From an uncultured Candidatus Saccharibacteria bacterium (GTDB lineage Bacteria > Patescibacteriota > Minisyncoccia > UBA6257): DNA of 64,000 nucleotides. A program made the translations under genes and the position numbers. This document shows, piece after piece, positions 2,565 to 61,176 of the stretch. Where the stretch lies: positions 32,001-96,000 of the forward strand of contig CAYZJA010000001.1 of assembly GCA_964479005.1 (NCBI GenBank). Reading direction: 5' to 3'. The notes under the pieces were generated by a model that was given only the letters and a program-made list of their open reading frames with translations, was not told where the DNA came from and made no database searches. Numbering within the stretch: position 1 is the stretch's first letter; every line of letters begins with the position of its first letter.

Positions 2565-2630
2565 GGCGAGGAGAAATTGTTTCAAAAACACGCTAATCGC
2601 TATAGTTTTTTTCAACAACCTCTTCTCGCC
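2565..2630. repeat. Hairpin element, copy 1: imperfect ~16-bp stem around a conserved 33-nt loop (TCAAAAACACGCTAATCGCTATAGTTTTTTTC)
   Basis: GGCGAGGAGAAATTGTT ... AACAACCTCTTCTCGCC flank a loop that is almost identical to the loop of the second copy at 33657-33724. Confidence 0.6.
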
Positions 2631-2688
2631 TTTTCAATAGACAAATTTTTCCGCTTTTTTATGCTATTTGTTAATTGTTATTTGTATT

Positions 2689-3366
2689 ATGCGTTTTGAT
2701 ATTCTCACAATTTTTCCTGAGATTTTTGATTCTTATTTTGATGCTTCTATTCTGAAAAAAGCTCAAAAGAAAAGGCTTATAAAAATTCATATTCATAATT
2801 TGCGGAAATGGACGTTAGATCGCCACCAAACAACTGACGATTGTCCTTATGGCGGAGGCATGGGAATGATTTTTAAAGTGGAGCCGATTTTTAAAGCTGT
2901 AAAAGATTTAAAAAAGAAAAAAATTAAAAAATGCCGCATCATCCTTTTTTCCGCAAAAGGGAAGAAATTAACACAAAAAAAGGTAAAACAATTATCTAAA
3001 TACGACCAAATAATACTTATTTGTCCGCGTTATGAAGGCGTAGACGAGAGGGTTACTAAATATATTGCTGATGAGGAAATATCTATTGGGGAATATATTT
3101 TAACAGGCGGAGAATTGCCGGCAATGATTTTAGTTGATACTGTTAGTCGTTTTGTTCCCGGGGTTATTAAAAAAGAATCACTTTTAGAGGAATCATTTTC
3201 TATAGATTTTGAGGAAAAAGGCGAATATCCTCAGTACACAAGACCGGAAATTTTTTATCCAAATAAGAAAAAGAAAAAAATAGCTTGGCGAGTTCCTGAT
3301 ATTTTGCTTTCAGGAAACCATAAAAAGATTAAAGAATGGAGGCGTAGACATTTAAAAAGGATATGA
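2689..3366 (+). CDS. trmD: tRNA (guanine37-N1)-methyltransferase
   Basis: MRFDILTIFPEIF... and the trefoil-knot region GEYILTGGELPAMILVDTVSRFVPGV are typical TrmD. Start set at the MRFDIL methionine. Confidence 0.9.
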   Translation: MRFDILTIFPEIFDSYFDASILKKAQKKRLIKIHIHNLRKWTLDRHQTTDDCPYGGGMGMIFKVEPIFKAVKDLKKKKIKKCRIILFSAKGKKLTQKKVKQLSKYDQIILICPRYEGVDERVTKYIADEEISIGEYILTGGELPAMILVDTVSRFVPGVIKKESLLEESFSIDFEEKGEYPQYTRPEIFYPNKKKKKIAWRVPDILLSGNHKKIKEWRRRHLKRI

Positions 3367-3575
3367 TTTTTCTTTCTTTTAATACAATTGAGGGACAAAA
3401 ATATCGCATTCAAGTGGAAAAAAGCGATGAATTGCTTAAAACACTTGACAAATTTTTAAAAAAGAATAAAATAAAGACGGCAAGTATTAAAGATTGGAAG
3501 GTTGCTTTTTCTAAAGAAAAAAGCATCACTTCGCGAAGAATATCCCAATCTATTTTACACGCGCTAAAATTTTAA
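3363..3575 (+). CDS. Hypothetical small protein, translationally coupled to trmD
   Basis: ATGA start/stop overlap with the trmD stop. 70 aa, no recognisable motif. Confidence 0.4.
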   Translation: MIFLSFNTIEGQKYRIQVEKSDELLKTLDKFLKKNKIKTASIKDWKVAFSKEKSITSRRISQSILHALKF

Positions 3576-3705
3576 AATAGTCTCATTTTAGTTTCGACGT
3601 TTTTAAACAAAGCAAAAAGGTTATCATAACCTATTTTGAGCAGAGCGAGAAACAAGGTTCCGCGAAGTAGGTTCTTATTATAATTAGGAATTTTTTTGTT
3701 ATTAG

Positions 3706-6700
3706 ATGTCTAATCAACTGACAATAAAATCTTTTTCCCGTCATTCCCGGGGCATTTTAGAGCCTCCACGATTAACCCAATTTCAAACTGATTCTTTTCA
3801 GTGGTTTTTAGAAAAAGGAATACGGGAGGTTTTTAAAGAATTATTACCAATTGGGGATTATACAGGCAAAGATTTAGAATTGGCTTTTGGAGATTATTAT
3901 TTTGAACCTCCAAAAATATCTGAGATTAAAGCCAAAGAAAAAGGGTTAAATTATGAATCTACAATTCGTGTAAAGCTGCGTTTAATTCATAAAAAGACAG
4001 GTGTTGAGAGAGAACAAGAAGTATATTTTGGTGAAATTCCCGTTATGACTCCACGGGGGACTTTTATTATTAATGGTGTAGAAAAAGTTGTTATTTCGCA
4101 AATCAATCGTTCTCCAGGAGTATATTTTTCTTCTGTGAATTTTAGAGGACGAAGGCTATTTGGAGCAAAACTTATCCCTTATCATGGGGCCTGGTTAGAA
4201 TTTGAGACTGATAATGATGGGGTTATTAGCGTAAAAATAGACAGGAAAAGAAAAGTGCCAATAAGCGCTTTACTTAGGATTTTTGGCTTAAAGACAAATG
4301 ATGATATAAAAAAAGCGTTTAAAATTAAAAAAGAAAAATCTTCTATTGAATATATTGAAAGCACTTTAAAGAAAGATTTGTCTACTAATCAAGAAGAAGG
4401 TTATGTTGAAATTTATCGCCACTTACGACCCGGGGAATTAGCCACTTTTGATAATGCTTATGATTTAATTAATAATATGTTTTTCCGATCTGATAGATAT
4501 GATTTAGCTAAAGTTGGAAGGTATAAATTTAATCAACGGCTTGAGCTTGATACCTCTTTTGATGAAAGAAGTTTAAAATTAGATGATCTTGTAGCGATTG
4601 TTAAAGAAATTATCAGATTAAATGATGACCCAGAGGCTATTGATGATGACATTGATCATTTAGGAAATAGGAGAGTAAAAGCGGTTGGGGAAATTTTAAC
4701 AGAAAGATTTAGGGTTGGATTGATGCGTATGCGTCGGACAATACAAGATAGAATGGCGACTTTAGATCCTGAAACATTAGTCCCTGCCCAATTAATAAAT
4801 CCTCGACAATTAGTAGCTGTGCTGCGGGAATTTTTTAATGTTTCCCAGCTTTGCCAGTTTATGGAACAAATGAATATGCTTTCAGAATTAGAGCATAAAA
4901 GAAAAATTACTTGTATGGGTCCAGGTGGATTAGTAAGAGAAAGAGCGGGATTGGAAGTTAGGGATATTCATACCAGCCATTACGGACGTTTGTGTCCTAT
5001 TCAGACTCCTGAAGGGCAGAATATCGGTTTGGTTCTTTCCCTGTCTCTTTATGCGCGATTAAATGAGTTTGGTTTTATTGAAACACCTTATATCAAAGTA
5101 AAAAAAGCCAGGCTTACTAATGAAATAATCTGGCTCAACGCTTTTGACGAATTAAAATATAAGATTGCTCATGGCACTGTTAATGTTGATGAAAATGGAA
5201 GGATGAAAGAAGAATTAATAGGGGCAAGGGTTAAAGGGGAGCCAACTTTAATTCACAACAAAGAAATTGAATTAATTGATGTGTCTTGCCAGCAAATTAT
5301 CTCTGTTGCTGTTAGTTTAATACCATTCTTAGAGCATGATGAATCTAATAGAGCGTTAATGGGAGCGAATATGCAAAGACAGGCTGTTCCTTGTTTAAGG
5401 CCAAAAGCTCCGTTGGTTGGTACTGGAATGGAGGAAAAGATTGCTTTTGAGTCGGGCCAGTGCCTGATTAGCGATATTGAGGGAAAAGTTATTGAAGTGG
5501 ACGCAAATCATATTGTTGTAAAGACAAAGGATAAGAAAAATAGAACTTACGAATTAATTAATTTTGGCCGCAGCAATAAAAATAGTTGGTTGATGCAAAA
5601 ACCTGTTGTAAACAAAGGGGATGTTGTAAAGGAAGGAACTTTATTGGCAGATGGAGCAGCTACGGAAAACGGGGTTTTAGCTTTAGGGCAAAATTTATTG
5701 GTTGCTTTTATGCCATTTTTTGGAGCTAATTATGAAGATGCAATTGTTATTTCAGAACGAGTTTTAAAAAATGATTATTTTACCTCTGTTTATTTAGAAG
5801 AGTTTACTTGTGATGTAGTGGAAACTAAGTTAGGTCAGGAAAGCACCACTCGTGATATACCTAATGTTTCCGAAAATAAATTAAAGAACTTAGATGAGGA
5901 TGGAGTAATAATGATAGGAGCTGAGGTAAAAGGGGGGGATATTTTAGTTGGGAAAATTTCACCGAAAGGAAAAGCGGAATTAACTCCAGAAGAAAGATTG
6001 CTACAAGCTATTTTTGGAGAGCAGATGAAGGATATAAAAGATACATCTTTAACTCTTCAGCCATCTCGACAAGGCAGAGTTGTTAAAACAAAAATTCTTT
6101 CCCGTAAAGAAGGGGATAAATTAAATGTTGGCGTTATAAAAAGTATAAGCGTGGAAATTGCAGAGCTAAGAAAAACTATGGCAGGAGATAAATTATCTGG
6201 ACGGCACGGAAATAAAGGCGTTATTTCTGTTATTGTTCCTGAAGAAGATATGCCTTATTTAGAAGATGGAACTCCAATTGATGTGGTTTTAAATCCTTTG
6301 GGAATCGGCAGCCGAATGAATTTAGGGCAGGTTTTTGAAAATCATTTAGGTTTAGCAGCTCAAAAATTAGGATATAGAGCTGTTACTCCGTCTTTAGATG
6401 GTGCCACTGAGGAAGATGTAAAAAAAGAACTTGTAAAAGCCGGATTGCCAGAAGATGGAAAAATTGCTTTATATAATGGCAAAACTGGCGAGAAATTTCA
6501 TAAAGACGTAGCAGTAGGCATAATATATATAATGAAATTAGAGCATATGGTAAAGGACAAAGTTCATATGAGAGCAATTGGTCCATATTCTTTAATTACC
6601 CAGCAACCTTTAGGCGGTCGAGCTCATCTTGGAGGTCAGAGATTCGGTGAAATGGAAGTTTGGGCATTAGAAGGATATGGCGCCGCATACTCACTTCAGG

Positions 6701-6894
6701 AAATGATAACAATAAAATCTGATGATATATTTGGAAGGGGGTCAGCTTACGAAGCTATAATTACCGGGGAAAAAATTAAAAACCCAAATATCCCCGCCGC
6801 TTTTAACGTAATTCTCAAAGAATTGCAATCATTATCTTTATCAGTAAATTTGATTGGAGTAAAAAAAGAAGAAGAAACAAATAACGATAGATAG
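3706..6894 (+). CDS. rpoB: DNA-directed RNA polymerase subunit beta
   Basis: Conserved blocks across the protein, e.g. GPGGL...RDIHTSHYGRLCPIQTPEGQNIGLV and GNKGVIS. Confidence 0.97.
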   Translation: MSNQLTIKSFSRHSRGILEPPRLTQFQTDSFQWFLEKGIREVFKELLPIGDYTGKDLELAFGDYYFEPPKISEIKAKEKGLNYESTIRVKLRLIHKKTGVEREQEVYFGEIPVMTPRGTFIINGVEKVVISQINRSPGVYFSSVNFRGRRLFGAKLIPYHGAWLEFETDNDGVISVKIDRKRKVPISALLRIFGLKTNDDIKKAFKIKKEKSSIEYIESTLKKDLSTNQEEGYVEIYRHLRPGELATFDNAYDLINNMFFRSDRYDLAKVGRYKFNQRLELDTSFDERSLKLDDLVAIVKEIIRLNDDPEAIDDDIDHLGNRRVKAVGEILTERFRVGLMRMRRTIQDRMATLDPETLVPAQLINPRQLVAVLREFFNVSQLCQFMEQMNMLSELEHKRKITCMGPGGLVRERAGLEVRDIHTSHYGRLCPIQTPEGQNIGLVLSLSLYARLNEFGFIETPYIKVKKARLTNEIIWLNAFDELKYKIAHGTVNVDENGRMKEELIGARVKGEPTLIHNKEIELIDVSCQQIISVAVSLIPFLEHDESNRALMGANMQRQAVPCLRPKAPLVGTGMEEKIAFESGQCLISDIEGKVIEVDANHIVVKTKDKKNRTYELINFGRSNKNSWLMQKPVVNKGDVVKEGTLLADGAATENGVLALGQNLLVAFMPFFGANYEDAIVISERVLKNDYFTSVYLEEFTCDVVETKLGQESTTRDIPNVSENKLKNLDEDGVIMIGAEVKGGDILVGKISPKGKAELTPEERLLQAIFGEQMKDIKDTSLTLQPSRQGRVVKTKILSRKEGDKLNVGVIKSISVEIAELRKTMAGDKLSGRHGNKGVISVIVPEEDMPYLEDGTPIDVVLNPLGIGSRMNLGQVFENHLGLAAQKLGYRAVTPSLDGATEEDVKKELVKAGLPEDGKIALYNGKTGEKFHKDVAVGIIYIMKLEHMVKDKVHMRAIGPYSLITQQPLGGRAHLGGQRFGEMEVWALEGYGAAYSLQEMITIKSDDIFGRGSAYEAIITGEKIKNPNIPAAFNVILKELQSLSLSVNLIGVKKEEETNNDR

Positions 6895-6915
6895 TAATTA
6901 GTAATTAAGTAGTTT

Positions 6916-9900
6916 ATGATAAAAGACACAGAAAAAAAGGTTAGTGATTTTGAAGCGCTTGGTTTAAAAATTGCCTCTCCAGAGGAGATTTTATCTTGGT
7001 CATATATAGAAGGGAATAAGTCATACGGAGAAATTACTAAAGCTGAGACAATTAACTATCGGACTCAAAAGCCGGAAAAAGAAGGCCTCTTTTCTGAGCA
7101 GATTTTTGGACCTGTAAAAGATTATGAATGTCCTTGCGGAAAATATAAAGGCGCTCACTACAAAGGGATTATTTGCGATCGTTGCGGAGTAGAAATAACC
7201 CGTTCTTTTATTCGCAGAGAAAGGATGGGTCATATTAAATTAGCTACTCCAGTAGTTCATATTTGGTTTTTACGTAGCATTCCTTCACGAATTGCTTTGG
7301 CGCTTGATGTTCCAATGGCCGCTTTAGAAAGAGTCATTTATTACAATAGCTATATTGTAGCTTCTATAGATGAAGCCGCAAAAAAAAGAGCTTTAGATGA
7401 AATAGAATCTGAATACAAGATTAAATCAAAAACATGGCCCAAAGATAAGAAAAAAGATTTAACAAAATCCCGCAGTCAAGCGCGAATGGGATTAGATATG
7501 ATAAAGCCAAAAGCTATTTTTTCTGAAATTGATTATTTAAACCTTTCAAAAAAATATGGTGAAGTTTTCACAGCAGAAACAGGAAGTGAGCCAGTGAGAA
7601 AATTCTTGGAGCAGATAGACCTTAAAAAATTAGTTAGTGAGTTAGAAAAAGAAATTGAGAAAAAATCGCACTTAAAAAATGTTGATAAAAAACTTCTTAA
7701 TCGTCTTAAATTAGCGAAAGGGTTTTTACACTCAAAGGCGCGCCCAGAGTGGATGTTTTTAACTATACTCCCCGTACTTCCTCCTGATTTGCGTCCAATG
7801 GTTGAGTTGGATGGAGGAAAATTTGCTACATCAGATTTAAATGACCTTTATCGCCGTGTTATTAATCGTAATAATCGTTTAAAAAAATTATTAGAGCTTA
7901 GAGCACCTGAAGTTATTATAAAAAATGAAAAGAGAATGCTGCAGGAAGCAGTAGACGCTTTAATTGATAATTCTATAAGAAAAGGTTCTGGCGCTACACC
8001 TATGCATTCAGCTCAACATCGTCCGTTGCGTTCTTTAGCTGATATCTTACAAGGCAAGCAAGGGCGTTTCCGTCAGAATCTTTTAGGAAAAAGAGTGGAT
8101 TATTCAGGCCGTTCAGTAATTGTTATTGGTCCTGAACTAAAAATTCACGAATGTGGATTGCCAAAAAAAATGGCTTTGGAATTATTTAAACCATTCGTAG
8201 CTGGGGAGTTAATAAAAAGAGAAATTGTTTTTAATCCTCGCGCCGCAAACCATTTAATTGAAGAGGGGTCTGACGTTATATGGGAAATTTTAGAAAATAT
8301 AGTAAAAAATAAATACGTTCTTTTAAATAGGGCTCCTACGCTTCATCGTTTAAGCATTGAAGCTTTTCGTCCAAAATTAATCGAAGGATTAGCTATTCAA
8401 ATTCCTGCAATGGTTTGCCCTCCTTTTAATGCTGATTTTGATGGAGATCAAATGGCAGTGCATGTTCCTTTATCTGAGGAAGCTCAGAGGGAGAGTGAAA
8501 ATAGAATGTTATCAACCTTAGGATTATTAAAGCCGTCTAATGGAGAACCTGCTATGTTGCCTCGACATGAAATGGTCGCAGGTATTTATTGGTTAACAAT
8601 GGATATGACGGAGAAAGAGGTTAAAGGCGATGATTTAAAAGAAAAAATCTTTTCTGATTCAAATGATGCGTTATTAACTTATGAATATAAAAAGATCGGA
8701 CTTCAAGAAAGAATTAAGGTCCGTATTTTAAAAGAAAACAATAAATTGATTAGTACTACTGTAGGAAGAATTATTTTTAACGAGATTTTACCAGAAGACT
8801 TTCCGTTTATAAACAAACAATTGAAGAGCAAGGACATAAAAGGTATTACTAAGGATATAATCCATTATTTTAATGATTTTCATAAAAGCGCCGAAATTCT
8901 AAATAATATAAAGAAGTTAGGTTTTTATTATTCTACTTTATCAGGCGTGTCATGGGGGCTTACTGATATAAAAGTTCCTGTAAAGAAAAAAGAGATTTTG
9001 GATGAGGCATCTGCAAAAGTTGAAGAGATTACCATTCAATATGAAGAAGGGCTTTTAACTGCGCAGGAAAAGAAGATTTTAACAGAGACACAATGGAGGC
9101 ATGCCGTTGATCAAATATCAGGATTAGTTTTAAAGACTTTAGACCCGAAAGATTCAGTTTATATATTTTTTAATTCAGGGGCAAAAGGAAATTGGGCAGT
9201 GGCCGCGCAAATTATGGGTATGAAGGGATTAGTGGTTAATCCTCTTGGGCAGTTGATAGAAATGCCTATTTTATCTTGTCATCAGGAAGGGTTTAATGTT
9301 CTGGAATATTTTGCCGCTTCACATGGCGGAAGAAAAGGATTGGCTGATACTGCTTTAAAGACCTCTTTTGCAGGCTATCTCACCAGAAGATTAGTGGATG
9401 TTGCTCAAGATGTTCTTATTAGGGAAAAAGATTGCCGAACAAAAAAGGGCTTGATTGTTAATAGAAAAAAGGTTGAAGAACAAAATGAAGATTTATCAAA
9501 GAAGATTTTTGGAAGAATTTTGAGTGATAATGCTGTTGATAAAAAAGGCAAAATTATAGCTAAAAGGGGAGAATTAATGGATGAAATATTAACTAAAAAA
9601 ATAGTAGATTCTTCAGTTGGAGAAATATTAGTTCGTTCTCCAATCACTTGCGAAAGCTTAAATGGAATTTGCCAGAAGTGTTATGGGCTTGATTTAGCAT
9701 GGAGAAAACTTATTGATTTAGGAGAAGCAGTTGGTGTTGTAGCTGCTCAATCTATAGGAGAACCAGGTACCCAGTTAACTTTAAGGACATTTCATACAGG
9801 TGGAGTAGCTCAAGCCGTTGATATTACTCAAGGGTTGCCAAGAGTAGAAGAAATTTTTGAAGCCAGGATACCTAAAGGTGAGGCGCCTATGAGCGAAGTA

Positions 9901-10524
9901 GATGGAGAGATTATTGAAATAAAAAAAATAAATCATCAAAAATTTATCAGGATAAAACCAAATGACAAAAAATCTCGTGTACTTGAATATGTTATATCTG
10001 AAACAGTAACTTTATGGGTTAAAAATGGAGAAGAAGTCAAAAAAGGCGATCAGCTTTGCGAAGGGCATCTTAATCTTAAAAAACTTTTTAGGATTTTGGG
10101 CAAAAATGCTTGTCAGGAATATATATTGGCGGAAATAAAGAAAGTATATGATATTGCGGGCGAGAATATTAATAATAAGCATTTTGAGATAATCATTAAA
10201 CAAATGTTCTCTCAATTAAAAATTACACATAGTGGTGATAGTGAGTTTATTCCAGGTGAAGTGATATCTAAAAAATCTTTTCAAGAAGAAGTAGATAGAT
10301 TGAAAAGTTTAAAGAAAGAAGCGCCTAAGGGAAGCGAAATACTTATGGGAATTAAAAATGTTGCGTTGAATTCTGACAGCTTACTTTCAGCTGCGTCCTT
10401 CCAAGAAACATCAAGAGTATTAATCAGAGCTGCTGTTGAAGGAAAAAAAGATTATCTGAAAGGCCTTAAAGAAAATGTTATTATTGGCAGGTTGATTCCT
10501 GCTGGGACAGGGTTTAGGGAATAA
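6916..10524 (+). CDS. rpoC: DNA-directed RNA polymerase subunit beta'
   Basis: Zn-finger CPCGKYKG...CDRCGVE, catalytic NADFDGDQMAVHVPLS, trigger-loop region. Confidence 0.97.
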   Translation: MIKDTEKKVSDFEALGLKIASPEEILSWSYIEGNKSYGEITKAETINYRTQKPEKEGLFSEQIFGPVKDYECPCGKYKGAHYKGIICDRCGVEITRSFIRRERMGHIKLATPVVHIWFLRSIPSRIALALDVPMAALERVIYYNSYIVASIDEAAKKRALDEIESEYKIKSKTWPKDKKKDLTKSRSQARMGLDMIKPKAIFSEIDYLNLSKKYGEVFTAETGSEPVRKFLEQIDLKKLVSELEKEIEKKSHLKNVDKKLLNRLKLAKGFLHSKARPEWMFLTILPVLPPDLRPMVELDGGKFATSDLNDLYRRVINRNNRLKKLLELRAPEVIIKNEKRMLQEAVDALIDNSIRKGSGATPMHSAQHRPLRSLADILQGKQGRFRQNLLGKRVDYSGRSVIVIGPELKIHECGLPKKMALELFKPFVAGELIKREIVFNPRAANHLIEEGSDVIWEILENIVKNKYVLLNRAPTLHRLSIEAFRPKLIEGLAIQIPAMVCPPFNADFDGDQMAVHVPLSEEAQRESENRMLSTLGLLKPSNGEPAMLPRHEMVAGIYWLTMDMTEKEVKGDDLKEKIFSDSNDALLTYEYKKIGLQERIKVRILKENNKLISTTVGRIIFNEILPEDFPFINKQLKSKDIKGITKDIIHYFNDFHKSAEILNNIKKLGFYYSTLSGVSWGLTDIKVPVKKKEILDEASAKVEEITIQYEEGLLTAQEKKILTETQWRHAVDQISGLVLKTLDPKDSVYIFFNSGAKGNWAVAAQIMGMKGLVVNPLGQLIEMPILSCHQEGFNVLEYFAASHGGRKGLADTALKTSFAGYLTRRLVDVAQDVLIREKDCRTKKGLIVNRKKVEEQNEDLSKKIFGRILSDNAVDKKGKIIAKRGELMDEILTKKIVDSSVGEILVRSPITCESLNGICQKCYGLDLAWRKLIDLGEAVGVVAAQSIGEPGTQLTLRTFHTGGVAQAVDITQGLPRVEEIFEARIPKGEAPMSEVDGEIIEIKKINHQKFIRIKPNDKKSRVLEYVISETVTLWVKNGEEVKKGDQLCEGHLNLKKLFRILGKNACQEYILAEIKKVYDIAGENINNKHFEIIIKQMFSQLKITHSGDSEFIPGEVISKKSFQEEVDRLKSLKKEAPKGSEILMGIKNVALNSDSLLSAASFQETSRVLIRAAVEGKKDYLKGLKENVIIGRLIPAGTGFRE

Positions 10525-10547
10525 TTTTTAATATTTAATTTATTATT

Positions 10548-13181
10548 GTGCCTTTAGGAAGATTTACAGCAAAAGCTCAAGCGGCGATAGAAAGGGCTCA
10601 GCAAATGGCTATGGAAAGAAACCAGGGAGAGATGCGCGCTCTCCATCTTTTGTATGTTTTGTTGGACGAAGAAGGGTCTGGCCCAAGGGAGATTTTAGAA
10701 AAAGAATTAAAAATTAATGTAGAAAAATTCTTAAAGAAGATATTAGAGGAAATTGTTAAATTACCGCGCATCTTTTCTGTTGGCAAGGGTTTTGGTCCAA
10801 TGTATCTTTCTCAGGAAATGTTGCAAATTATAGAAGTTACCGCTAAAAAAGCGATGGAGGAAAAAAATGAATTTATTTCCCCAGAATATTTATTTTATGG
10901 CATACTTGCTTCTAAAAATTCTGCGCAGGAATTAATAAGCGAATTTAATATTAGCAAGGAAGAGTTTTTAAAAGCTCTTCATCATTATACAGCTGGTGAA
11001 AAAATTACTGATGAATTTCAAGAAGTTGGCGCTAATGCTATAGAAAAATATACCCAAGATCTTACTGAATTAGCAAGAGAGAATAAATTGGACCCAGTGA
11101 TAGAAAGGGAGGAAGAATTACGGCGAGTTATGCAGATATTGTCACGCAGGACAAAAAATAACCCAATATTAATGGGTGAAGCAGGTGTAGGAAAAACCGC
11201 TATTGTAGAAGGATTGGCTCAACGTATTGCTTCTTCCGAAGTTCCGGAAAGTTTAATTGATAAAAAAATTATATCATTAGATTTAGGGGCATTAATAGCC
11301 GGGACCCGTTTTAGAGGGGAGTTTGAAGAACGATTAAAAAATCTTCTTAAAGAAATAAAAAAGGCCGGTAATATTATAATTTTCATTGACGAAATTCATA
11401 CATTGGTAGGAGCAGGAGCGGCTGAAGGAGCTATTGACGCTTCTAATTTATTAAAACCCGCATTAGCCAGAGGTGAATTGCGGGCTATTGGAGCGGCAAC
11501 TTTTAAAGATTATCGTGAATATATTGAAAAAGACCCGGCTTTAGAAAGACGTTTTCAGCCAGTATTAGTAGAAGAACCTTCAATTGAAGAAGCAATTGAG
11601 ATTTTACGGGGATTAAAATCAAAATATGAAGCTCATCATGGATTAAAGATATCTGATCAAGCAATTATAATGGGAGTACAATTATCCAGCCGTTATATTA
11701 CCTCCCGTTTTTTGCCTGATAAAGCCATAGATTTAATGGATGAAGCCGCTTCATCAATGAGCTTGGATATTGGTAGCATTCCTTTGCCCATCTCTGAATT
11801 AGAAGCCAAAATAAAATCTCTGGAACTGCAAAAAGAGGCAAGCAAAAAGGAAATACGGGAAGGTAAAAAAATAACGCAAGATAGAAGAAGAATCGGAAAC
11901 GAGTTGAAGAAATTAAAACAAAAATATAATAAGATAAAAAGTAAATGGCAGAAGGAAAAAGAAATATTTAACGAAGTGAGCGCCATTAAAAAAGAAATAG
12001 AGGAATTAGAAAAAAATTCGCAAGAATTTGAGAGGACTGGGCAATTAGATAAAGTTGCGGAAATAATTTATGGTAAAATTCCCCAATTAAAAAAAACATT
12101 AAGATTCAATGGAAAGTCTTTGAGTAAAATTTCCGAAGAAGAAAGGTTTTTAAAAGATGAGGTAACAGCTGAAGATATCGCCCGCGTAGTTTCCCGATGG
12201 ACTGGAATTCCTGTAACAAGAATGCTTGAAGAGGAAAGCAAAAAATTAGTGAGAATGGAGAAAGACTTAAGCAAAAGAGTTGTGGGGCAAAAAGAGGCTA
12301 TTTTTGCGGTAAGCAGGGCTATTAGAAGAGCCCGCGCAGGAATATCAGAAGAAGACAGACCCATAGGTTCTTTTATGTTTTTGGGGCCAACTGGAGTGGG
12401 AAAAACAGAGCTTGCTAGGGCTTTGGCAGAATTTATGTTTTCTAATGAAAAAGCAATGATTCGTATAGATATGTCCGAGTATATGGAAAAACATAGTGTT
12501 GCCCGTTTAATTGGTTCTCCTCCTGGATATGTTGGTTATGAAGAAGGGGGGCAATTAACAGAAGCAATAAAACATCGCCCATATAGCCTGATTTTGTTTG
12601 ATGAAATAGAAAAGGCCAATCCAGAGGTATTTAATATTCTTCTTCAAATATTAGATAATGGCCGTCTTACTGACGGTAAGGGTCGGGCAGTGAATTTTAA
12701 AAACACAATTATTATTATGACCTCTAACTTGGGCGGGGAATATTTACAGGAAATGGTTTCTTTGGGATTTGTTGCGAATAAAAAGAATAAGGTGGAACAA
12801 CAGAAAGAGGAATTAAAAAATAAAATTCATGATGCTTTAAGGGAAAAATTCCGTCCAGAATTTCTTAATCGTGTTGATGAAATTGTCATTTTTAATACTT
12901 TAAGCATTCGGAGCATAGAAAAAATTGTGGATTTGCAAATAAATATAATTAATCATCGGTTAGTTGATAAGAAGATTGCTTTAAAATTAAGCAAAGAGGC
13001 AAAGAAATATTTAGCTCAAAAAGGTTATAATCCTAATTATGGCGCACGACCGTTAAAAAGACTTATTGAAAAAGAAGTCCTTGATCCTTTAGCTGATGAA
13101 ATTATCAAAGGCAAAATAAAAGAAGGAAACAAAATTACCGTTTCTTTCAAGAAAAATACTCTGAATTTATGCAAAAAATAA
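10548..13181 (+). CDS. clpB: ClpB-type AAA+ disaggregase chaperone (two AAA modules plus a middle coiled coil)
   Basis: Clp N-domain; Walker [16 protein letters not shown] and [15 protein letters not shown]; long middle coiled coil; sensor regions. Confidence 0.9.
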
Positions 13182-15308: not shown

Positions 15309-15427
15309 GCTTTCTATAATCTAACATATTTGCTTTGATGGTTCAATTATGGTATTATCAGCAATAGTTTTTACTAATTATGAGCCAAAGGCGAATAACA
15401 AGGTTCTTGTAAACGAGGTTCTTATAT

Positions 15428-17252: not shown

Positions 17253-17279
17253 CAAATAACAAATAACAATTTGTAAGAT

Positions 17280-17495: not shown

Positions 17496-17504
17496 CATAA
17501 AACG

Positions 17505-17990: not shown

Positions 17991-18045
17991 AATTCTACAG
18001 GCAATTAATGAGTAATTAATAATTTGTAATTGGAAAATAACAAAT

Positions 18046-19254: not shown

Positions 19255-19310
19255 TATCAAATATTAAACATTAAACTTTTAAACTGACAGCGTAGCATTA
19301 CAATAATTTT

Positions 19311-20540: not shown

Positions 20541-20617
20541 TAATAATCAAGAACCAAATAACAATTAACATTTTTGTTAGCTGTTAGTTGTTCATTCTTA
20601 ATTTATATTTTATTTGT

Positions 20618-22729: not shown

Positions 22730-22732
22730 ATT

Positions 22733-25640: not shown

Positions 25641-25678
25641 TTGCCTAATAACGCTTTTTATTATACAATAAAAACATT

Positions 25679-27088: not shown

Positions 27089-27104
27089 ACCTTTGTGCTA
27101 TAAT

Positions 27105-27258
27105 GCACTGGGTCTTGCCGGATTAAGGAACGATTCAGGACAAGTTGGTTTTCAAAGGGAGCTCAATGTCTTTTGTCCTGTTGGGCAAAAGCGCGAGCAC
27201 CCACTTTACTACTAGCTGATTCGACCTTAGTTGCGGGTAAGGCCCGTTATTTATACTT
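27105..27258 (+). ncRNA. GC-rich structured intergenic element, candidate small ncRNA of unknown class
   Basis: Local GC is well above background. Closing helix GGGUCUUGCC / GGUAAGGCCC (10 bp with G-U pairs). Internal helix CAGGACAA / UUGUCCUG. Lies between aspS and rpmB. Confidence 0.35.
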
Positions 27259-27277
27259 TTAAACCTTTTATATAATT

Positions 27278-27469
27278 ATGTCACGAGTTTGCTCAATTTG
27301 CGGAAAAAGCTATCAGAATGCCATTAAATACAAAAAAGTTCATTCAGCTTATAACCCAACTTCCCGGCATCGTCAGATGCCTAATTTGCAATGGTTTAGA
27401 ATGCCAGACGGCAAAAGAGTAAAGGCTTGCACTAAATGCCGCAAACGCCTTTCCAAAACAATCTCTTAA
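27278..27469 (+). CDS. rpmB: 50S ribosomal protein bL28
   Basis: MSRVCSICGK...PNLQ...ACTKCRK: L28 N-terminus and the PNLQ motif. Confidence 0.8.
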   Translation: MSRVCSICGKSYQNAIKYKKVHSAYNPTSRHRQMPNLQWFRMPDGKRVKACTKCRKRLSKTIS

Positions 27470-27475
27470 ACCTTT

Positions 27476-27688
27476 ATGAAAAAGGTAAAAATAGATAAAC
27501 AAAAATGCCTCGGTTGCGGAGTATGTATTAGTCTTTGCCCCGAGGTTTTTGAATTAAAGGACGGAAAATCACAAATAAAAGGAAAAGTTGATTTTAAAAA
27601 ACACAAAGATTGTATTAAAGAAGTAATTGATTCCTGCCCTGTAAATGCGATATCATCAGTCATTGCGAGCAAAGGGAAGCAATCTTAA
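27476..27688 (+). CDS. Small 4Fe-4S ferredoxin
   Basis: CLGCGVCISLCP cluster motif plus a distal CP. Confidence 0.8.
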   Translation: MKKVKIDKQKCLGCGVCISLCPEVFELKDGKSQIKGKVDFKKHKDCIKEVIDSCPVNAISSVIASKGKQS

Positions 27689-27730
27689 TTACTAGTTATT
27701 TGGTTGTTTTTTCACTTTTGATTTTCTTCC

Positions 27731-27807
27731 CGGGGTGTGGCCTAGTGGTTTAGGGCGCTCGCATGGGGTGCGAGAGATCTTCGCAGGTTCGAGTCCCGCC
27801 AGCCCGA
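27731..27807 (+). tRNA. tRNA-Pro (anticodon GGG)-like gene with a long variable region
   Basis: Perfect anticodon stem CTCGC/GCGAG with loop ATGGGGT; D-arm with GG; T-loop GGTTCGAGTCC. One G-G mismatch in the acceptor stem, one A-C mismatch in the T stem, and an 8-nt variable region. Overlaps the 3' end of rlmE on the opposite strand. Confidence 0.55.
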
Positions 27808-28386
27808 CAAAACAACAAATACTTCTTTACTTCTTTTCCGCGTTGCTTTGGGTCTGAACATTTTAAAGAATTTAAAAAGCGAAGATACTTTTTTAGCTAA
27901 AAAATGAACATCATTACTTTCAAAGGCTTTACAAACAAAAGAGCCTTCTTTTTTTAATAAAGGGGGAATAAAAGAAAAAGCTTTTTTGATTAATTCAAGA
28001 GAGCGTTCGCTATCAACATCTTTAATTCCAGAAGTTGCTGGAGCAAGATCAGATATAATCACATTGAATTTATCTGGAAGATTATTTTTTTTAAGCAAAT
28101 TTTGAATTTTCTCAACTTTTAGCTTAAAAATATCTTTTTGAAGGAAAATAGCTTTGGTAGAAACAGTAATTGGCTTTAAATCTACTCCCACAACTTTTCC
28201 ATTGGGTTGAATAACTTTTTGGGCGTAAAGTAACCAAGAACCTGGGAAACAACCAAGGTCCAAAACTAAGTCACCAGGTTTAAAAATATGGAATCTTTCG
28301 TCAATTTCTTTTAGTTTATAAACTGAACGGGCAGGATAGCCCTCTTTTTTTGCTTTTTTGAAATAATGGTCTTGGGATTTATACAT
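27742..28386 (-). CDS. rlmE: 23S rRNA (uridine-2'-O)-methyltransferase RlmE/FtsJ
   Basis: SAM-binding region VLDLGCFPGSWLLYA and the FtsJ fold motifs. The C-terminal ~20 codons overlap the tRNA on the other strand. Confidence 0.85.
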   Translation of the reverse strand: MYKSQDHYFKKAKKEGYPARSVYKLKEIDERFHIFKPGDLVLDLGCFPGSWLLYAQKVIQPNGKVVGVDLKPITVSTKAIFLQKDIFKLKVEKIQNLLKKNNLPDKFNVIISDLAPATSGIKDVDSERSLELIKKAFSFIPPLLKKEGSFVCKAFESNDVHFLAKKVSSLFKFFKMFRPKATRKRSKEVFVVLSGWRDSNLRRSLAPHASALNH

Positions 28387-28474
28387 TATGTTCAGTATAA
28401 GGAATAAAAATTAAGAGGGCAAGGATATTAATATGTGATTGTGAATAAAGCACAATCATAGTAAAATAATATTA

Positions 28475-31063
28475 ATGAAGAGAATGTGGCATAGTCTTTC
28501 TTGGCAGGAAGCATTGCAAATATTAGATTCAGACTTTAAACAAGGTTTGTCTAAGGAAGAAATAAAGATTCGCCAAAAAGAATTTGGAAAAAACAAGCTT
28601 CCTGAAGAAAAACCATTATCAAAATTAAAAATATATTTGGAGCAGTTTAATAGCCCCTTTGTTTATATTCTAATAGTTGCTGGAATTGTTACTTTATTTT
28701 TAAGAGAATTTGCTGATACTATTGTTATTTGGGCGGCAGTGTTTATGGATACAACCGTTGGGTTTATTCAGGAAAACAGAACTTCAAACGCTTTAAAAGA
28801 ATTAAAAAAGATTATTAAACAAGAATCTGAAGTTCTCAGGAATGGAAATTTAAAAATTATTAATTCTGAAGAATTGATTCCTGGCGATATTATCATTTTA
28901 AATCCTGGAGATAAAATTCCTGCAGACGCGAGAATAATTGAGTCCCAGGGCCTAAAAGTGAATGAGATGACTTTGACTGGAGAATGGTTGCCATCAGAAA
29001 AGATTTTCAGAACATTATTAGGTCAGACGCATTTGATGGACAGGGACAATATGGTTTATATGGGATGTATTATAGAAGCTGGAAAAGGCAAGGCTATTGT
29101 GGTAAATACCGGCATATATACAGAAATTGGAAAGATTGCCAAAATGGTAAAAGAGGCGCCAGAAAGAAAAACTCCTTATCAAAAGAAATTAGCAAGTTTT
29201 TCAACTATGATAGGAATAGGCATTACTTTTGTTTGTGCCTTTATTTTTTTTGAGGGATTAATAAAGGGAAAAGAATTTGTAGAAATGTTTACTACTTCTG
29301 TTGCTGTGGCTGTTTCTGCTATACCCGAAGGATTACCTGTGGCAATAACAGTAATTTTAGCTTTAGGAATGCAGAAAATTTTAAAAAAGAAAGGATTAAT
29401 AAGAAAATTGGCTTCAGCAGAAACCCTGGGAAATACCAGTATAATATGCACTGATAAAACAGGTACTTTGACTAAAGGAAAGATGAAAGTTAGTGAGATA
29501 ATTGGTGATAAATCTTTGGTTCTTAAATCAGCTGTTTTAACATCAGAAGCGTTTATTGAAAATCCAGATGATATTATGAAAAAATGGATTCTAAGAGGTA
29601 GGCCCACAGACAGGGCTTTATTAGAAGCTGGAATTGAAAATGGATTGATTAATATGAAGAAAAAGATGGAAGAAGATAAATTATCTGAGGTTCCTTTTAA
29701 CCCAATAAATAAATTTGCTGCTGCTTTTTATAAAGAATCAGGGGAAATGAATTTGTATATTTGCGGCGCTCCAGAAAGAATTTTTGAAAGAAGTAATTTA
29801 AATGATGAACAAAAAAGAAGATTAGAAGAAAAATTAAAAGGATTAACTAGTAAAGGATTGCGTGTACTTGCTACAGGCTGCAGGAAAGTTGAAAAAAGTG
29901 AGAATATAACTTATGAAATTAAAGGATTAGAAGTGCTTTGTTATGATTTTATTTTTACTGGTTTTATTGCTTTAAATGATCCAATTCGTAAAGAGGTAAA
30001 ACAAGCAATAAGAGTTTGCCAAAAAGCTGGTATGAGACCTATTATAGTTACTGGAGACCATAAATTAACAGCTAAGGCAGTGGCAGAAGAATTAGGTTTT
30101 GAAATAACAAAAGAAAATATTTTAGAAGGAATGGATTTGGATAAATTGTCTAATAAAGAATTTGAAGCAATTCTGGATAAAATACAGATTTATTCTAGAG
30201 TGGAACCTAAGCATAAGATGAGAATTATTGATGCTTGGCAGGATAGAGGTGAAGTTGTGGCAATGACCGGAGATGGAATAAACGACGCGCCAGCTTTGAA
30301 AAAAGCGGATATTGGGATAGCCTTAGGTTCTGGAACAGCTGTGGCAAAAGAAAGTTCAGATTTAATTTTATTAAATGATAGTTTTTCTATCATTGTTAAA
30401 GCCATAGAAGAAGGAAGGGTTATTATTGATAATATTAGGAAGGTTATTACATATTTACTTTCAGATAGTTTCACAGAAGTAATTTTAATAGGGACGAGTA
30501 TCTTTATTGGAGCTCCTTTACCAATAATCGCCGTACAGATATTATGGGTTAATTTAATTGAAGATGGTTTGCCTGATATTGCTTTGGCTTTTGAACCCAA
30601 AGAAGAGGGAATAATGGAACAAAAAGCCCAAGGCCATGAAGTTCATTTATTGACCAAAGAAATGAAATTCATAATTGTGATTATTGGAGTGATTACTGAT
30701 TTAATGCTTTTAGGATTATTCTTTTGGTTATGGAAACTAAATTTTGATATTACATATATCAGAACAATGATTTTTGCCTGCCTTTCAATTGATTCAATTT
30801 TTTATGTTTTTTGTTGTAAAAGCCTGCGTAAGAATTTATGGCAGATTAATATTTTTTCCAATAAACTTTTATTAGTAGCAGCAGTTTTAGGAATAATAAT
30901 GTTGGTAGCTGCTGTTTATGTTCCAATGCTTCAAAGTCTTTTGAAAACAGTACCTTTGGGAATTTATGATTGGTTGATTGTATTGACCTTGGGAATAATT
31001 GAGTTAATTGCTATTGAAGCGGCAAAGCATTATTTTATTGTCCGCCACCAAACCGAAGATTAA
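28475..31063 (+). CDS. P-type cation-transporting ATPase (type IIA/Ca2+-ATPase-like)
   Basis: Phosphorylation site ICTDKTGTLT, hinge GDGINDAPALKKADIGIA, TGES-region, about 10 TM helices. Confidence 0.9.
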   Translation: MKRMWHSLSWQEALQILDSDFKQGLSKEEIKIRQKEFGKNKLPEEKPLSKLKIYLEQFNSPFVYILIVAGIVTLFLREFADTIVIWAAVFMDTTVGFIQENRTSNALKELKKIIKQESEVLRNGNLKIINSEELIPGDIIILNPGDKIPADARIIESQGLKVNEMTLTGEWLPSEKIFRTLLGQTHLMDRDNMVYMGCIIEAGKGKAIVVNTGIYTEIGKIAKMVKEAPERKTPYQKKLASFSTMIGIGITFVCAFIFFEGLIKGKEFVEMFTTSVAVAVSAIPEGLPVAITVILALGMQKILKKKGLIRKLASAETLGNTSIICTDKTGTLTKGKMKVSEIIGDKSLVLKSAVLTSEAFIENPDDIMKKWILRGRPTDRALLEAGIENGLINMKKKMEEDKLSEVPFNPINKFAAAFYKESGEMNLYICGAPERIFERSNLNDEQKRRLEEKLKGLTSKGLRVLATGCRKVEKSENITYEIKGLEVLCYDFIFTGFIALNDPIRKEVKQAIRVCQKAGMRPIIVTGDHKLTAKAVAEELGFEITKENILEGMDLDKLSNKEFEAILDKIQIYSRVEPKHKMRIIDAWQDRGEVVAMTGDGINDAPALKKADIGIALGSGTAVAKESSDLILLNDSFSIIVKAIEEGRVIIDNIRKVITYLLSDSFTEVILIGTSIFIGAPLPIIAVQILWVNLIEDGLPDIALAFEPKEEGIMEQKAQGHEVHLLTKEMKFIIVIIGVITDLMLLGLFFWLWKLNFDITYIRTMIFACLSIDSIFYVFCCKSLRKNLWQINIFSNKLLLVAAVLGIIMLVAAVYVPMLQSLLKTVPLGIYDWLIVLTLGIIELIAIEAAKHYFIVRHQTED

Positions 31064-31120
31064 AAACCCCGAAGAGTTATTGACAACCAGTTATTAATAT
31101 ACGATTATATAAATGATAGA

Positions 31121-31561
31121 ATGTTCTTAACGCTCTTTGATAATATAGTTCCCAAAAGTCCTGACCTAAGAATGACAGTCAGGAGAAAGGAGGAAAATAA
31201 AATGGGAACGTCTCAGGTCGTTCTAACAAAGAAAATTTCTTTGTGGGAAGACCCGGAAATCAGAAGTGAGGGTTTAATAGGAACCAAGAATGAGGTTCTA
31301 AAAATTCTCAGCGAAATTCTTGATAAGAATCAACATCCATTGTTTGATTTAGTGCTGTATACAGACGGTCAAGGTAGCACTGGGCCTTTTGTGAATAAAA
31401 TTTTTATTCTTGGAAGACGAGAAGTTATTTCCTGTAATCTACAAGAGATTGCAGAGAGAATAGCTTCTAAAAAGAGATTGAAGAAGAATGAAGTCTGGAT
31501 TAGGGGAATCTGGATCGGGTTTGATCCTTTAGGAAAACCAAGGATTGAGGAATTGACTTAA
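31121..31561 (+). CDS. Hypothetical protein
   Basis: ORF with no recognisable motif; the start may be the internal Met MGTSQ. Confidence 0.4.
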   Translation: MFLTLFDNIVPKSPDLRMTVRRKEENKMGTSQVVLTKKISLWEDPEIRSEGLIGTKNEVLKILSEILDKNQHPLFDLVLYTDGQGSTGPFVNKIFILGRREVISCNLQEIAERIASKKRLKKNEVWIRGIWIGFDPLGKPRIEELT

Positions 31562-31613
31562 TTTTTTCTAGTCTTTGTTATAAAAGAAAGAAACGCGTAC
31601 TTATAAAAAATAG

Positions 31614-31654
31614 AAGGAGTAAAGTATTATGATTTTCATAATACTTTCTCCTTC
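31614..31654. repeat. Near-perfect 19-bp inverted repeat (hairpin)
   Basis: GAAGGAGTAAAGTATTATGA-ttt-TCATAATACTTTCTCCTTC. Confidence 0.6.
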
Positions 31655-31810
31655 CCAAACATTTCAAAATTTTAAGCCTAATTATAGGGCTTTTTTTATT
31701 ATTTACGTTTAATTCAAAGGGTTAACATAGCATAGAAAAGGGAGTAAAATATGTTATATAGCTGAAAACTCAAAATTTAAAGGGTTGGAAGTTAATTAAA
31801 AGATAAATTT

Positions 31811-32311
31811 ATGGAGAAACAAGAAAATAATTTTGCCTTTATTGATAGTCAAAATCTTAACTTAGGAATTCAAAGTTTAGGCTGGAAATTGGATCATCGA
31901 AGATTTAGAATTTATTTAAAGGAAAAGTATAGAGTCTCAACGGCATATCTTTTTATTGGTTATATTCCGGCTAATCAGGATTTATATTCTGCATTACAAA
32001 GAGATGGTTATGTTTTAATTTTTAAACCAACATTACCTGATAAAAGCGGAGAAGTTAAAGGTAATGTAGATGCGGATTTAGTCTTACAAGCAATGGTTGA
32101 TTATAAGAAATATGATAAAGCCGTAATTGTTACAAGCGACGGAGATTTTTATTCTTTAATTAAACATTTATACAAAAATAAAAAGCTTATATGTGTAATA
32201 AGCCCATATGTCAAAACTTGTTCTGTTTTATTAAAAAAGACGGCAAAAGAGAAGATATTCTTTATGGCTAATTTAAGAAAAAAACTTGAATATAAAGAAA
32301 AACACCGCTAA
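31811..32311 (+). CDS. NYN-domain (LabA-like) predicted ribonuclease
   Basis: AFIDSQNL ... GNVDADLVLQAM ... VIVTSDGDF: the acidic residues of the NYN/PIN-like fold. Confidence 0.75.
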   Translation: MEKQENNFAFIDSQNLNLGIQSLGWKLDHRRFRIYLKEKYRVSTAYLFIGYIPANQDLYSALQRDGYVLIFKPTLPDKSGEVKGNVDADLVLQAMVDYKKYDKAVIVTSDGDFYSLIKHLYKNKKLICVISPYVKTCSVLLKKTAKEKIFFMANLRKKLEYKEKHR

Positions 32312-32439
32312 GGGACAAAACCCATAGAGGTGTTTTTCATGTGTATTCTGATTAAATTATAGCGAAAATACGCCCATTGTCAAGTACTACTTATTCACAA
32401 GAGATTATTTAAAAATTAATAATTTATTAATGCAATAAA

Positions 32440-33456
32440 ATGAGTTTAAAAATAACTAAAATATTGTCTAAAAACTGGCTTTCTAATAAACAATGGGGGG
32501 AGATTTTGCGTCAGAAAGATAAAACAAATTTTAAGGTAAAAATTGGTCATATTGATCCAAGGCGTCTTGCTGATCCTAATTTTATCAATCGCAGGGTTTT
32601 TTCAGAAAGTAAAACCAAAGAAACGATTATAATTGGTTCAGAGCATCCACACGGTCCAAAGATATGGGAAAGAGCTCAGCAGGAAGCTTCAAAAATGGTG
32701 GAAGAGTGCGCTCAAGCATTTGGGCAAGCAGATCTTATTCAGAAAGCGCAGGAATTGAAAGAGCAAAGTGGCGAGGCAATAAAAACCTTGAAACAAGATG
32801 ATTTACTTGCTCCTGTATCAGAAAAATTTGATTATCATAGTTTTATTATCATTACAGAGTGTACTGATGAGAAAACAGCTAAACAAACCTTGGAAAACCG
32901 TTATTTAGTGCCAACCCATGGTTTTTTAGATGCTCCTGTTCCAGGAATGAATATACCGGGAATGAGTGATAAAACTACTCTAAGAGAACTCTTAAAGACT
33001 GATATGATGAAGGATTATATAACCAAAGAACAGATTAAGGAGATGGAGAAAGCAATGGAGGAGGTAAAGGGTAAATTTCCCAAAGATGTTAAGATTCGCA
33101 AGGGGAAATATCAAGGATTTGATGTTGTATTTCTTGAAGGCAAGAATAAGAGTTCTGTTGTTTCTTACATTAAAGAAAGTAAAGACAGGAATAAGGTTTT
33201 TGATATGGTAAGAGCAGGACGTTTTATTGTGTCAGGCACTTTATTGCGAATAATTAATAGTTTTCCATTAGGAAGTACTCCTTGTGATTCTTTAACAAAA
33301 TTCAAAACAAAAACCACAACTTACGAAATAGGAGGAGAGACTTTCACTACTAAAGAGATTTATCCCATCAAAAGCACCCTTTCTAAGGAGGGTTATCTTT
33401 ATAAAGAAGAAGTTGATAAAATATTCAAATCTATTTTCTCGGCAATTAAAGGATAG
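32440..33456 (+). CDS. Hypothetical protein
   Basis: Long ORF, no recognisable motif. Confidence 0.5.
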   Translation: MSLKITKILSKNWLSNKQWGEILRQKDKTNFKVKIGHIDPRRLADPNFINRRVFSESKTKETIIIGSEHPHGPKIWERAQQEASKMVEECAQAFGQADLIQKAQELKEQSGEAIKTLKQDDLLAPVSEKFDYHSFIIITECTDEKTAKQTLENRYLVPTHGFLDAPVPGMNIPGMSDKTTLRELLKTDMMKDYITKEQIKEMEKAMEEVKGKFPKDVKIRKGKYQGFDVVFLEGKNKSSVVSYIKESKDRNKVFDMVRAGRFIVSGTLLRIINSFPLGSTPCDSLTKFKTKTTTYEIGGETFTTKEIYPIKSTLSKEGYLYKEEVDKIFKSIFSAIKG

Positions 33457-33656
33457 ATTATTTTTTTTAAAGATAGTGAAAAATGCTATAATAAAATAAG
33501 GAGGAAAATTCAGTTCCTCCTTTACCTATAGATATTATTCGTAAATGGCGATGGAGAGAAAAACAAAAAGTTATACTTAAAATAAACGAAAAAAAGAAAA
33601 CAATTACTATCAGCGATTGGAAACCAAAGAGTTAATCTATTCTGTCATCCTGAAGT

Positions 33657-33724
33657 GAGGCGAGGAGATATTGTTTTAAAAACACGCTAATCGCTATAGT
33701 TTTTTTCAACAACATCTCCTCACC
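33657..33724. repeat. Hairpin element, copy 2 (same conserved loop as 2565-2630)
   Basis: GAGGAGATATTGTT ... AACAACATCTCCTC (13/14 bp) flanks a loop TTAAAAACACGCTAATCGCTATAGTTTTTTTC that differs by 1 nt from copy 1. Confidence 0.6.
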
Positions 33725-61172: not shown

Positions 61173-61176
61173 AAAG

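Follow-up and report, generated by a model that had tools for sequence, protein, structure and literature searches.

The window analysed here, a 64-kb stretch of genomic DNA, contains two copies of a hairpin-forming repeat that lie 31 kb apart, as an earlier note on this sequence had reported. Copy 1 (2562-2633, with its strong stem at 2565-2630) occupies the spacer between khpA (2180-2539, + strand) and trmD (2689-3366, + strand), and copy 2 (33656-33727, strong stem at 33659-33724) lies between the remnant of a MazE/AbrB-like open reading frame (ORF; 33495-33635) and a 371-aa ORF (33861-34976). In both copies the - strand pairs better. The centre of each is formed by the same invariant core, the 17-mer CACGCTAATCGCTATAG, which comprises the closing C-G pair and a 15-nt apical loop, ACGCTAATCGCTATA. 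The window has exactly two occurrences of this 17-mer, on the + strand at 2589-2605 and 33683-33699, against a mean of 0.06 matches in shuffled sequences; on the bottom strand the core of copy 1 reads TA-TAGCGA-T-TAGCGT. The start-less AbrB-like remnant that the earlier note placed before copy 2 is plausible, because the ORF has no start codon and gives a weak, partial match to the MazE/AbrB fold (E = 0.004, below the curated cut-off) in which the N-terminal 11 profile positions are missing.

Over approximately 73 nt, the two copies are 93% identical, with five differences between them, and their outer flanks are unrelated. Each locus folds into a single long hairpin with fold z-scores of -4.5 to -7.4 and a helix of about 26 pairs, rather than the stem of 14-16 bp originally described. 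What had been taken for a 33-nt loop resolves into an AAAAAC/GTTTTT helix, a TTGTT/AACAA pairing across a 2x2 internal loop, and the 15-nt apical loop. The calculated folding energies are -27.6 kcal/mol on the + strand and -32.3 kcal/mol on the - strand for copy 1, and -25.1 and -35.1 kcal/mol, respectively, for copy 2, whose - strand forms a perfect 18-bp outer helix. A covariance model built from 47 distinct copies of the family described below gives the two loci scores of 92.1 and 91.3 bits and, with its filters off, detects no third copy in the window. At gathering thresholds, Rfam 15 recognises tRNA-Pro alone in the window and no family at either hairpin locus; for copy 1, an E-value scan yields nothing beyond generic miRNA-type hairpin matches that score 20 bits or less, where the cut-offs are 39-230, and a tRNA/tmRNA scan leaves both loci without a match.

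Scans with the 17-mer core and the covariance model recovered a total of 57 distinct copies in metagenomes and metagenome-assembled genomes (MAGs) related to the window organism. The exact 17-mer matches 69 metagenome loci, approximately 55 of them true copies, and gives 16 matches in species-representative genomes. Five of these 16 are true copies (three in one MAG) that share the same extended loop, CAAAAA...TTTTTT, inside differing but complementary arms; the other 11 have unrelated flanks and are attributed to chance. Since the A- and T-runs beside the 17-mer lie outside the search pattern, they confirm the copies independently. The fetched loci, designated here by numbers with the prefix L, are about 1-17 kb long and mostly shorter than 14 kb, and within them the covariance model found 11 more copies with slightly altered loops (TAT[A/G/C]G, CTATACGC, CACACTATACGC and one with a 2-nt insertion). 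The density is approximately one copy per 30 kb, judged from two in 64 kb, and at 11 loci a second copy lies 1-4 kb away. The names carried by TrmD homologues at 63-72% identity (Paceibacterota, Minisyncoccia or Parcubacteria) mark the window as a Paceibacterota-type genome of the candidate phyla radiation (CPR), and the three genome-collection MAGs with copies bear unverified labels, two of Saccharibacteria and one of Paceibacterota. The hairpins are members of a previously undescribed dispersed repeat family of Paceibacterota-type (CPR/Patescibacteria) genomes. The opposite outcome envisaged in the earlier note, that no further copies would exist and the two loci would be paralogous remnants of one duplicated fragment, could draw on there being only two copies in the window at 93% identity, as could chance similarity; the 57 distinct copies at unrelated loci in many genomes, together with the unrelated flanks of the window pair, refute both and leave them practically no probability.

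The unit of the family is an imperfect palindrome of 72-80 nt, with short tails in some subfamilies. Its outermost part is a helix whose sequence is free but complementary; inside this follow a conserved inner helix (ATTGTT/AACAAY), the 2x2 internal loop, an A5C/GT5 helix and the nearly invariant 15-nt apical loop. At least seven sequence classes can be distinguished among the outer arms, and the conserved part is central. In a model-guided alignment of the 57 copies, 17 of the 26 stem pairs show changes on both sides (219 cells), and pairs 13-80 and 14-79 each occur as four or five pair types. Of the cells, 85.9% are paired, whereas shuffling gives 73.3% and sliding the partner columns 59% or less, and the covariation score of 0.341, against 0.131, is reached by none of 500 shuffles; an ungapped alignment agrees. 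These data support the earlier proposal that selection acts on structure, the stems co-varying strongly around an almost invariant loop. The accompanying contrast between an identical loop and different stems fails for the two window copies, in which one of the five differences falls in the loop where about 2.3 are expected (not significant), and holds once the wider family is counted. Of the three identities then suggested (small RNA, protein-binding element, miniature mobile element), a miniature mobile element or a protein-bound hairpin fits best, because close relatives differ by gain, loss and truncation of copies.

The copies are located in intergenic spacers, mostly 0-20 nt 3' of stop codons. 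When the loci are oriented as in the window, approximately 34 of 43 have a co-directional upstream gene whose end lies 0-20 nt ahead of the hairpin; the downstream gene, usually co-directional as well, starts 17-146 nt past it. For about 20% of copies the orientation is opposite to that of the genes, and the junction is convergent at three loci and divergent at three. The neighbours are unrelated housekeeping genes (khpA, pheS, rpoA, rpoC, ligA, pgk, tpiA, RNase J, secD, gltX, polA, comEC and mreC, most names being read from the sequences), and we found no common functional theme among them.

Three junctions differ in element state between genomes at 83-96% protein identity, the element being present, absent, halved or inverted. 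At the khpA-trmD junction, where identities refer to TrmD compared with that of the window, the relatives contain a canonical terminator, T1 (AAAATCGCGGTAT...ATACTGCGATTTTTT), that consists of an A-run, a ATCGCGGTAT stem and a T-run and looks bidirectional. It is kept at this junction at 68-96% TrmD identity (spacers L092:1401-1500 and L095:1415-1500, and also in L097-L099 and L049). T1 stands by itself in L092 (96%), L095 (86%), L097 (73%), L098 (72%) and L099 (68%); it is accompanied by the 3' half of the element in L093 (92%) and L094 (88%), and in L049 (73%) it is followed after 4 nt by a full element. In the window itself (100%) the element is present and T1 is mostly gone. The short stretch CCGCTTTTTT at 2651-2660 on the + strand may be a remnant of the 3' arm and T-run of T1, a homology suggested by comparison of the khpA-trmD spacers. 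Because relatives have this separate canonical terminator at the same junction, the hairpin element is, as far as sequence comparison can tell, not the ordinary terminator of the upstream gene.

At the rpoC-clpB junction, the window has a 23-nt spacer (10525-10547) and no element, whereas the element is found in L030 (83-86% identity) and, in the opposite orientation beside an inserted uppS, in L079 (93% identity). The insert in L079 (913-2000) is about 1.1 kb long and contains uppS, the inverted element and another G+C-rich hairpin. After comEC, L084 (91% identity) carries an insertion of approximately 114 nt that contains the element and provides the stop codon, at a place where the two genes abut in the window. 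Comparison of this insertion with window copy 2, at an unrelated locus, reveals a common 5' extension, TCATCCTGARGTG, and a common TTTAAACC tail. In copy 2 the extension, TCATCCTGAAGTG, occupies 33646-33658 on the + strand, and since it is also present at the comEC copy of L084, the repeat unit of this subfamily exceeds the hairpin. The 3' tail of copy 2 (33723-33746, + strand) reads CCTTTAAA-CCTTTAAA-CCTTAAC, an octamer repeat that begins within the hairpin foot, and the CCTTTAAA tail also lies 3' of copies at the unrelated loci L011, L066 (twice), L084 and L018:312. As a microsatellite, (CC)TTTAAA(CC), the octamer has two units in the window (33723-33746) and about seven in L066 (1265-1330); it might reflect slippage or be the footprint of repeated events. 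Moreover, L004 and L032 share flanks despite different upstream genes, and inverted partial copies adjoin full ones in L068, L069 and L044.

The two strands of the hairpin are not equivalent. Mean folding energies are -21.5 kcal/mol on the + strand and -30.3 kcal/mol on the - strand; the whole hairpin is more stable on the - strand in 47/47 copies (+ strand, 0/47), and the outer stem alone in 41/47 (+ strand, 6/47). G.U pairs are available on the - strand only in 96 cells and on the + strand only in 31. Position 22-68, for example, appears as A.C, A-U and G-C on the + strand and as G.U, A-U and G-C on the - strand. Stem mismatches on the + strand are Y.Y, and the conserved internal loop, like a recurrent second one, is UC/UC on the + strand and tandem G.A on the - strand. 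This pattern of mismatches shows that one strand, the bottom one, has to fold. In 28 other window intergenic regions downstream of + strand genes, the + strand folds better in 17 and the - strand in 11, and the absence of such a bias there rules out a compositional artefact. The canonical terminator T1 has its wobble G.U on the + strand, opposite to the hairpin element. The structurally constrained strand is the one opposite to the flanking genes, antisense to its neighbours in approximately 80% of loci.

This asymmetry bears on one explanation for a hairpin placed after stop codons, namely that it is a cis-acting element of the + strand mRNA: a terminator, an attenuator, or a 3'-end stabilising hairpin with a protein-binding loop. 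The co-oriented upstream gene ending just before the hairpin fits such a role, as do the remaining ability of the + strand to fold (mean about -21 kcal/mol), the copies at convergent junctions, e.g., at the RNase J locus, which would suit a bidirectional terminator, and a CRISPR RNA (crRNA), described below, whose inferred orientation makes it complementary to the + sense RNA. The wobble and mismatch types nevertheless favour the opposite strand, the U-tract after the stem comprises only 2-5 U before the sequence becomes mixed A/T, about 20% of copies are inverted with respect to their genes, and some copies are at divergent junctions. Furthermore, the L049 copy is preceded at close range by a canonical terminator whose U-tract is full, and in most relatives that terminator stands alone. 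A + strand RNA would account for the position of the element, not for the strand asymmetry or the co-existence with T1, and we consider this explanation possible but unlikely. A general scan of the window gave 22 terminator-like sites against 13.6 (sd 3.9) in shuffles, a modest excess, and too many promoter-like sites to be informative.

If instead the bottom strand were transcribed, the family would represent multicopy genes for an antisense small RNA, with the invariant loop as seed or protein-binding site. The G.U pairs and tandem G.A on the bottom strand where the top strand is mismatched are consistent with this, and in L049 the sequence TTCAAA-N16-TACAAT lies 8 nt upstream in that orientation, with the bidirectional T1 hairpin after the element. 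Across the family, however, no positioned -10-like hexamer is enriched upstream in the bottom-strand orientation (maximum 6/57 copies at any offset), no U-tract follows the hairpin on the bottom strand, the spacer to the next gene is as variable as 17-146 nt, and in L054, L057 and L085 the bottom strand is part of an operon mRNA (6-9 nt either side). Such an RNA would account for the asymmetry but would be left without promoter and terminator, which makes it very unlikely in our judgement.

A DNA signal read by RNA polymerase could take one of two forms, and the case for either would rest on short motifs. As a promoter module for the downstream gene, the + strand offers TTGTTT-N18-TAT[A/G/C]GT with the -10 element exposed in the loop; positions 1, 2 and 6 of this -10-like hexamer stay T, A and T in every variant, the half-elements of L093 and L094 included, and the downstream gene is co-oriented in most loci. 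Yet copies at convergent junctions have no gene to drive, and a promoter does not need a co-varying 26-bp hairpin. The second form would resemble ssoA, the single-strand origin of rolling-circle plasmids, a hairpin that functions in one orientation only. The motif CS-6 of ssoA, TAGCGT, is situated in the terminal loop (PMC4598088, PMC8860593). The bottom-strand loop of our element, TAGCGA-T-TAGCGT, likewise contains TAGCG(T/A) hexamers, although a 6-nt motif is weak alone. The similarity to the ssoA of pE194 is not significant beyond about 12 nt, local alignment being no better than with shuffles, so that we rejected homology; no rep gene lies nearby. The ssoA is approximately 150 nt long, has a conserved recombination site B (RSB) and resides on a plasmid with rep and a double-strand origin (dso), whereas the present element is half that size, has no RSB-like arm conserved across the family, and lies among chromosomal housekeeping genes. 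Taken together, we give a signal for RNA polymerase, in either form, even less credence than a small-RNA family.

We favour, tentatively and with a probability of roughly 0.45, a dispersed REP/MITE-like hairpin repeat (REP, repetitive extragenic palindrome; MITE, miniature inverted-repeat transposable element) that is now or was recently mobile and whose folded single strand would be read by a protein encoded elsewhere. The element would be a small, non-autonomous mobile or recombining unit that inserts into the few available intergenic spacers, usually right 3' of a stop codon or beside an existing terminator, and that is gained, lost, inverted and truncated between close relatives. For the element to propagate or be retained, one strand would have to fold, and sequence would have to be preserved in the loop and the inner stem. 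An enzyme encoded elsewhere that binds hairpins sequence-specifically would recognise this folded single strand, most likely as DNA, by its loop and inner stem, and would copy or move the element by analogy with RAYT for REP/REPIN and with the TnpA of IS200/IS605 for end hairpins. Once inserted, the hairpin would be co-transcribed with its neighbours and could act as a gene-boundary structure, a role that would explain the long retention of some copies.

Several observations weigh against this interpretation, and our confidence is limited by two of them in particular: no reading protein was found, and the replication polarity is opposite to the IS200/IS605 rule. We found no mobilising enzyme in the window and the fetched loci, and no transposase between paired copies, where the genes are ordinary (a histidine kinase, a PD-(D/E)XK nuclease, PfkB kinases, S11 and an XerD-like recombinase). 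GC skew (+0.06 to +0.26) and gene orientation indicate that the + strand is the leading strand and the lagging-strand template, and the better-folding - strand is therefore not the most exposed single-stranded DNA. The outer arms, which would be the terminal repeats of a MITE, are the variable part; GTAG occurs within 16 nt 5' of the foot in 7/57 copies and on the other side in 3/57; and the boundaries of the filled and empty pairs (the comEC end, rpoC|clpB and khpA|trmD) are ragged, so that no clean target-site duplication can be defined. IMG/VR viral contigs gave no match to the exact or a degenerate core, and a blastn search of 72,556 plasmids returned only chance-level matches of about 20 nt. 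In addition, copies with an identical loop and compensated stems are kept at several junctions at 61-80% protein identity, e.g., in L054/L057, at the RNase J locus and in the infA-rpsM region. Where the loop is 100% identical at 61-75% protein identity, purifying selection on a host function seems the better match, unless insertion into a hotspot is repeated. The retained junctions could reflect either long-term retention or repeated insertion into the same hotspot; insertion does recur, as the khpA|trmD and rpoC|clpB cases show.

A matching spacer in a CRISPR locus suggests that at least one related organism treats the element as foreign. In L070, three to four mini-arrays, each with its own duplicated leader (880-2030, 9900-10589), flank cas genes (2627-9852) whose content, cas10/csm1, csm2, csm3, csm4, csm5 and a CARF-HD gene, defines the locus as type III-A. 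One 35-nt spacer (1879-1913) equals the bottom-strand core of the element and has 0-4 mismatches to essentially every copy. Judging from repeat polarity and leader position, its crRNA would pair with the + sense RNA. The closest named homologue of the L070 Cas10 comes from a Patescibacteria group bacterium (71% identity). The related Csm loci L100 and L101 hold no spacer against the element, and the viral contigs gave no matches for the second L070 spacer or the L070 repeat. Type III-A adaptation reportedly favours DNA that is partially palindromic and forms hairpins, sso origins being an example (PMC8860593). The Csm locus of L100 (2644-7918) lies beside genes with VWA and Tubulin_2 domains and a dCTP deaminase gene, neighbours that may point to a phage or plasmid context for this CRISPR lineage.

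Among known systems, the family can be compared with REP/REPIN (RAYT, HUH Y1), which are likewise extragenic imperfect palindromes near gene ends, dispersed and co-transcribed with their neighbours, with a hairpin thought to be read as a single strand and pairing maintained in evolution. REPs, however, are 20-40 nt long, occur in hundreds of copies and bear a 5' GTAG or CGTC tag, whereas our element measures 72-80 nt at about one copy per 30 kb, and only the 7 of 57 copies noted above have the GTAG. The architecture is also reversed: REPs have conserved arms and a less conserved spacer, and here the loop is invariant and the arms vary. No RAYT gene, which in REP systems usually has the repeats on its flanks, was seen in the window or the fetched loci. 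With bacterial MITEs (Correia/CREE, ERIC, RUP) the element shares small non-coding insertions in intergenic transcribed DNA, truncated copies, possible effects on termination or processing, and presence/absence polymorphism, found between close relatives at the three junctions described above. MITEs keep their terminal inverted repeats while the interior drifts, and they leave target-site duplications; in the present family the centre is conserved and the ends vary, and we found neither conserved terminal inverted repeats nor an insertion sequence.

The resemblance to intrinsic terminators lies in the position just after stop codons, the A-rich 5' and T-rich 3' flanks and the G+C-rich stem foot; the differences are a far longer hairpin with a 15-nt invariant loop, a short U-tract, wobble pairs on the wrong strand and a hairpin that is weaker on the gene strand. 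Integron attC sites also lie 3' of ORFs, fold on the bottom strand and conserve structure more than stem sequence. We rejected attC because the foot (AAAGG...CCTTT) has no R''/R' boxes (RYYYAAC...GTTRRRY), on either strand GTT comes before AAC, symmetric internal loops take the place of extrahelical bases, there is neither an array nor intI, and the neighbours are syntenic housekeeping genes. The TIGR arrays of Tas systems, in which tandem stem-loops beside a Nop-domain gene have variable spacers in their loops (PMC12045711), were rejected as well, the present copies being solitary with an invariant loop. Resemblances noted by eye to a parS half-site, the Escherichia coli Ter core, Chi-like AGCG, HutP UAG spacing and the 16S rRNA sequence AAUCGCUA were set aside as too short.

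Additional repeats were observed in the same spacers and elsewhere. Short TTGTTAA/TTAACAA repeats lie directly 5' of start codons in the window (2669-2686) and at many loci, even in L092, which has no element, and equivalent spacers of CAZUBI01-type genomes contain TACGAAT repeats; both may be promoter or leader motifs particular to a lineage. Beside copies of the element, GTCATCCTGAG(G/C) and CTGTCATTGCGAGGAGTGAAA recur (window 33645-33657; L084, L039 and L046; flanks of L018, L077, L064 and L071) and resemble fragments of a different short palindromic repeat that is widespread. A second small hairpin repeat, CAAGGAC...ATGCC..GGCAT...GTCCTT..GGTGTGGGGGT, is found at 61104-61146 in the window and at L049:3133-3175 (93% over 43 nt), in unrelated intergenic regions. 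The 295-nt intergenic region at 61003-61297 of the window folds into several hairpins, including terminator-like ones, with -76 kcal/mol on the + strand versus -46 kcal/mol on the - strand (z = -4.4), and has no Rfam match at E <= 0.1. The surroundings of copy 2 (31100-37800) resemble a variable or defence-type region, with an NYN-domain protein, two proteins without a Pfam match, the MazE/AbrB-like remnant, a secreted SNase-Excalibur nuclease and a HATPase_c_3 protein.

The element misses defining features of REP, MITE, attC, ssoA and every Rfam family, and has in common with several of them the general principle that an extragenic hairpin is read in single-stranded form. We found no comparable dispersed repeat family, and no comparable structured non-coding element, reported for Paceibacterota in Rfam 15 or the literature searched; within that literature, this is to our knowledge the first dispersed intergenic hairpin repeat described for the group. 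A bolder proposal, which we regard as quite unlikely, is that the hairpin is the cognate site of a strand-specific hairpin-reading system of CPR bacteria, be it a new class of mobilising enzymes that read an invariant loop in place of terminal repeats, a chromosomal ssoA-like priming or termination signal, or a template-strand hairpin promoter. Were it true in any of these three forms, the element would be conspicuous enough for a single type III-A spacer of another Patescibacteria-type system to cover every copy.

The genomes of CPR/Patescibacteria are small, compact and poorly understood, and the 17-nt invariant core makes this family easy to recognise in them. Since it marks gene boundaries and is rapidly gained and lost, it can be used to follow genome dynamics at the strain level. 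Compared with the usual rule for mobile repeats, the design is reversed, the centre being invariant while the arms co-vary and one strand is constrained, and this reversed architecture offers a tractable entry point to the protein that would read the hairpin.

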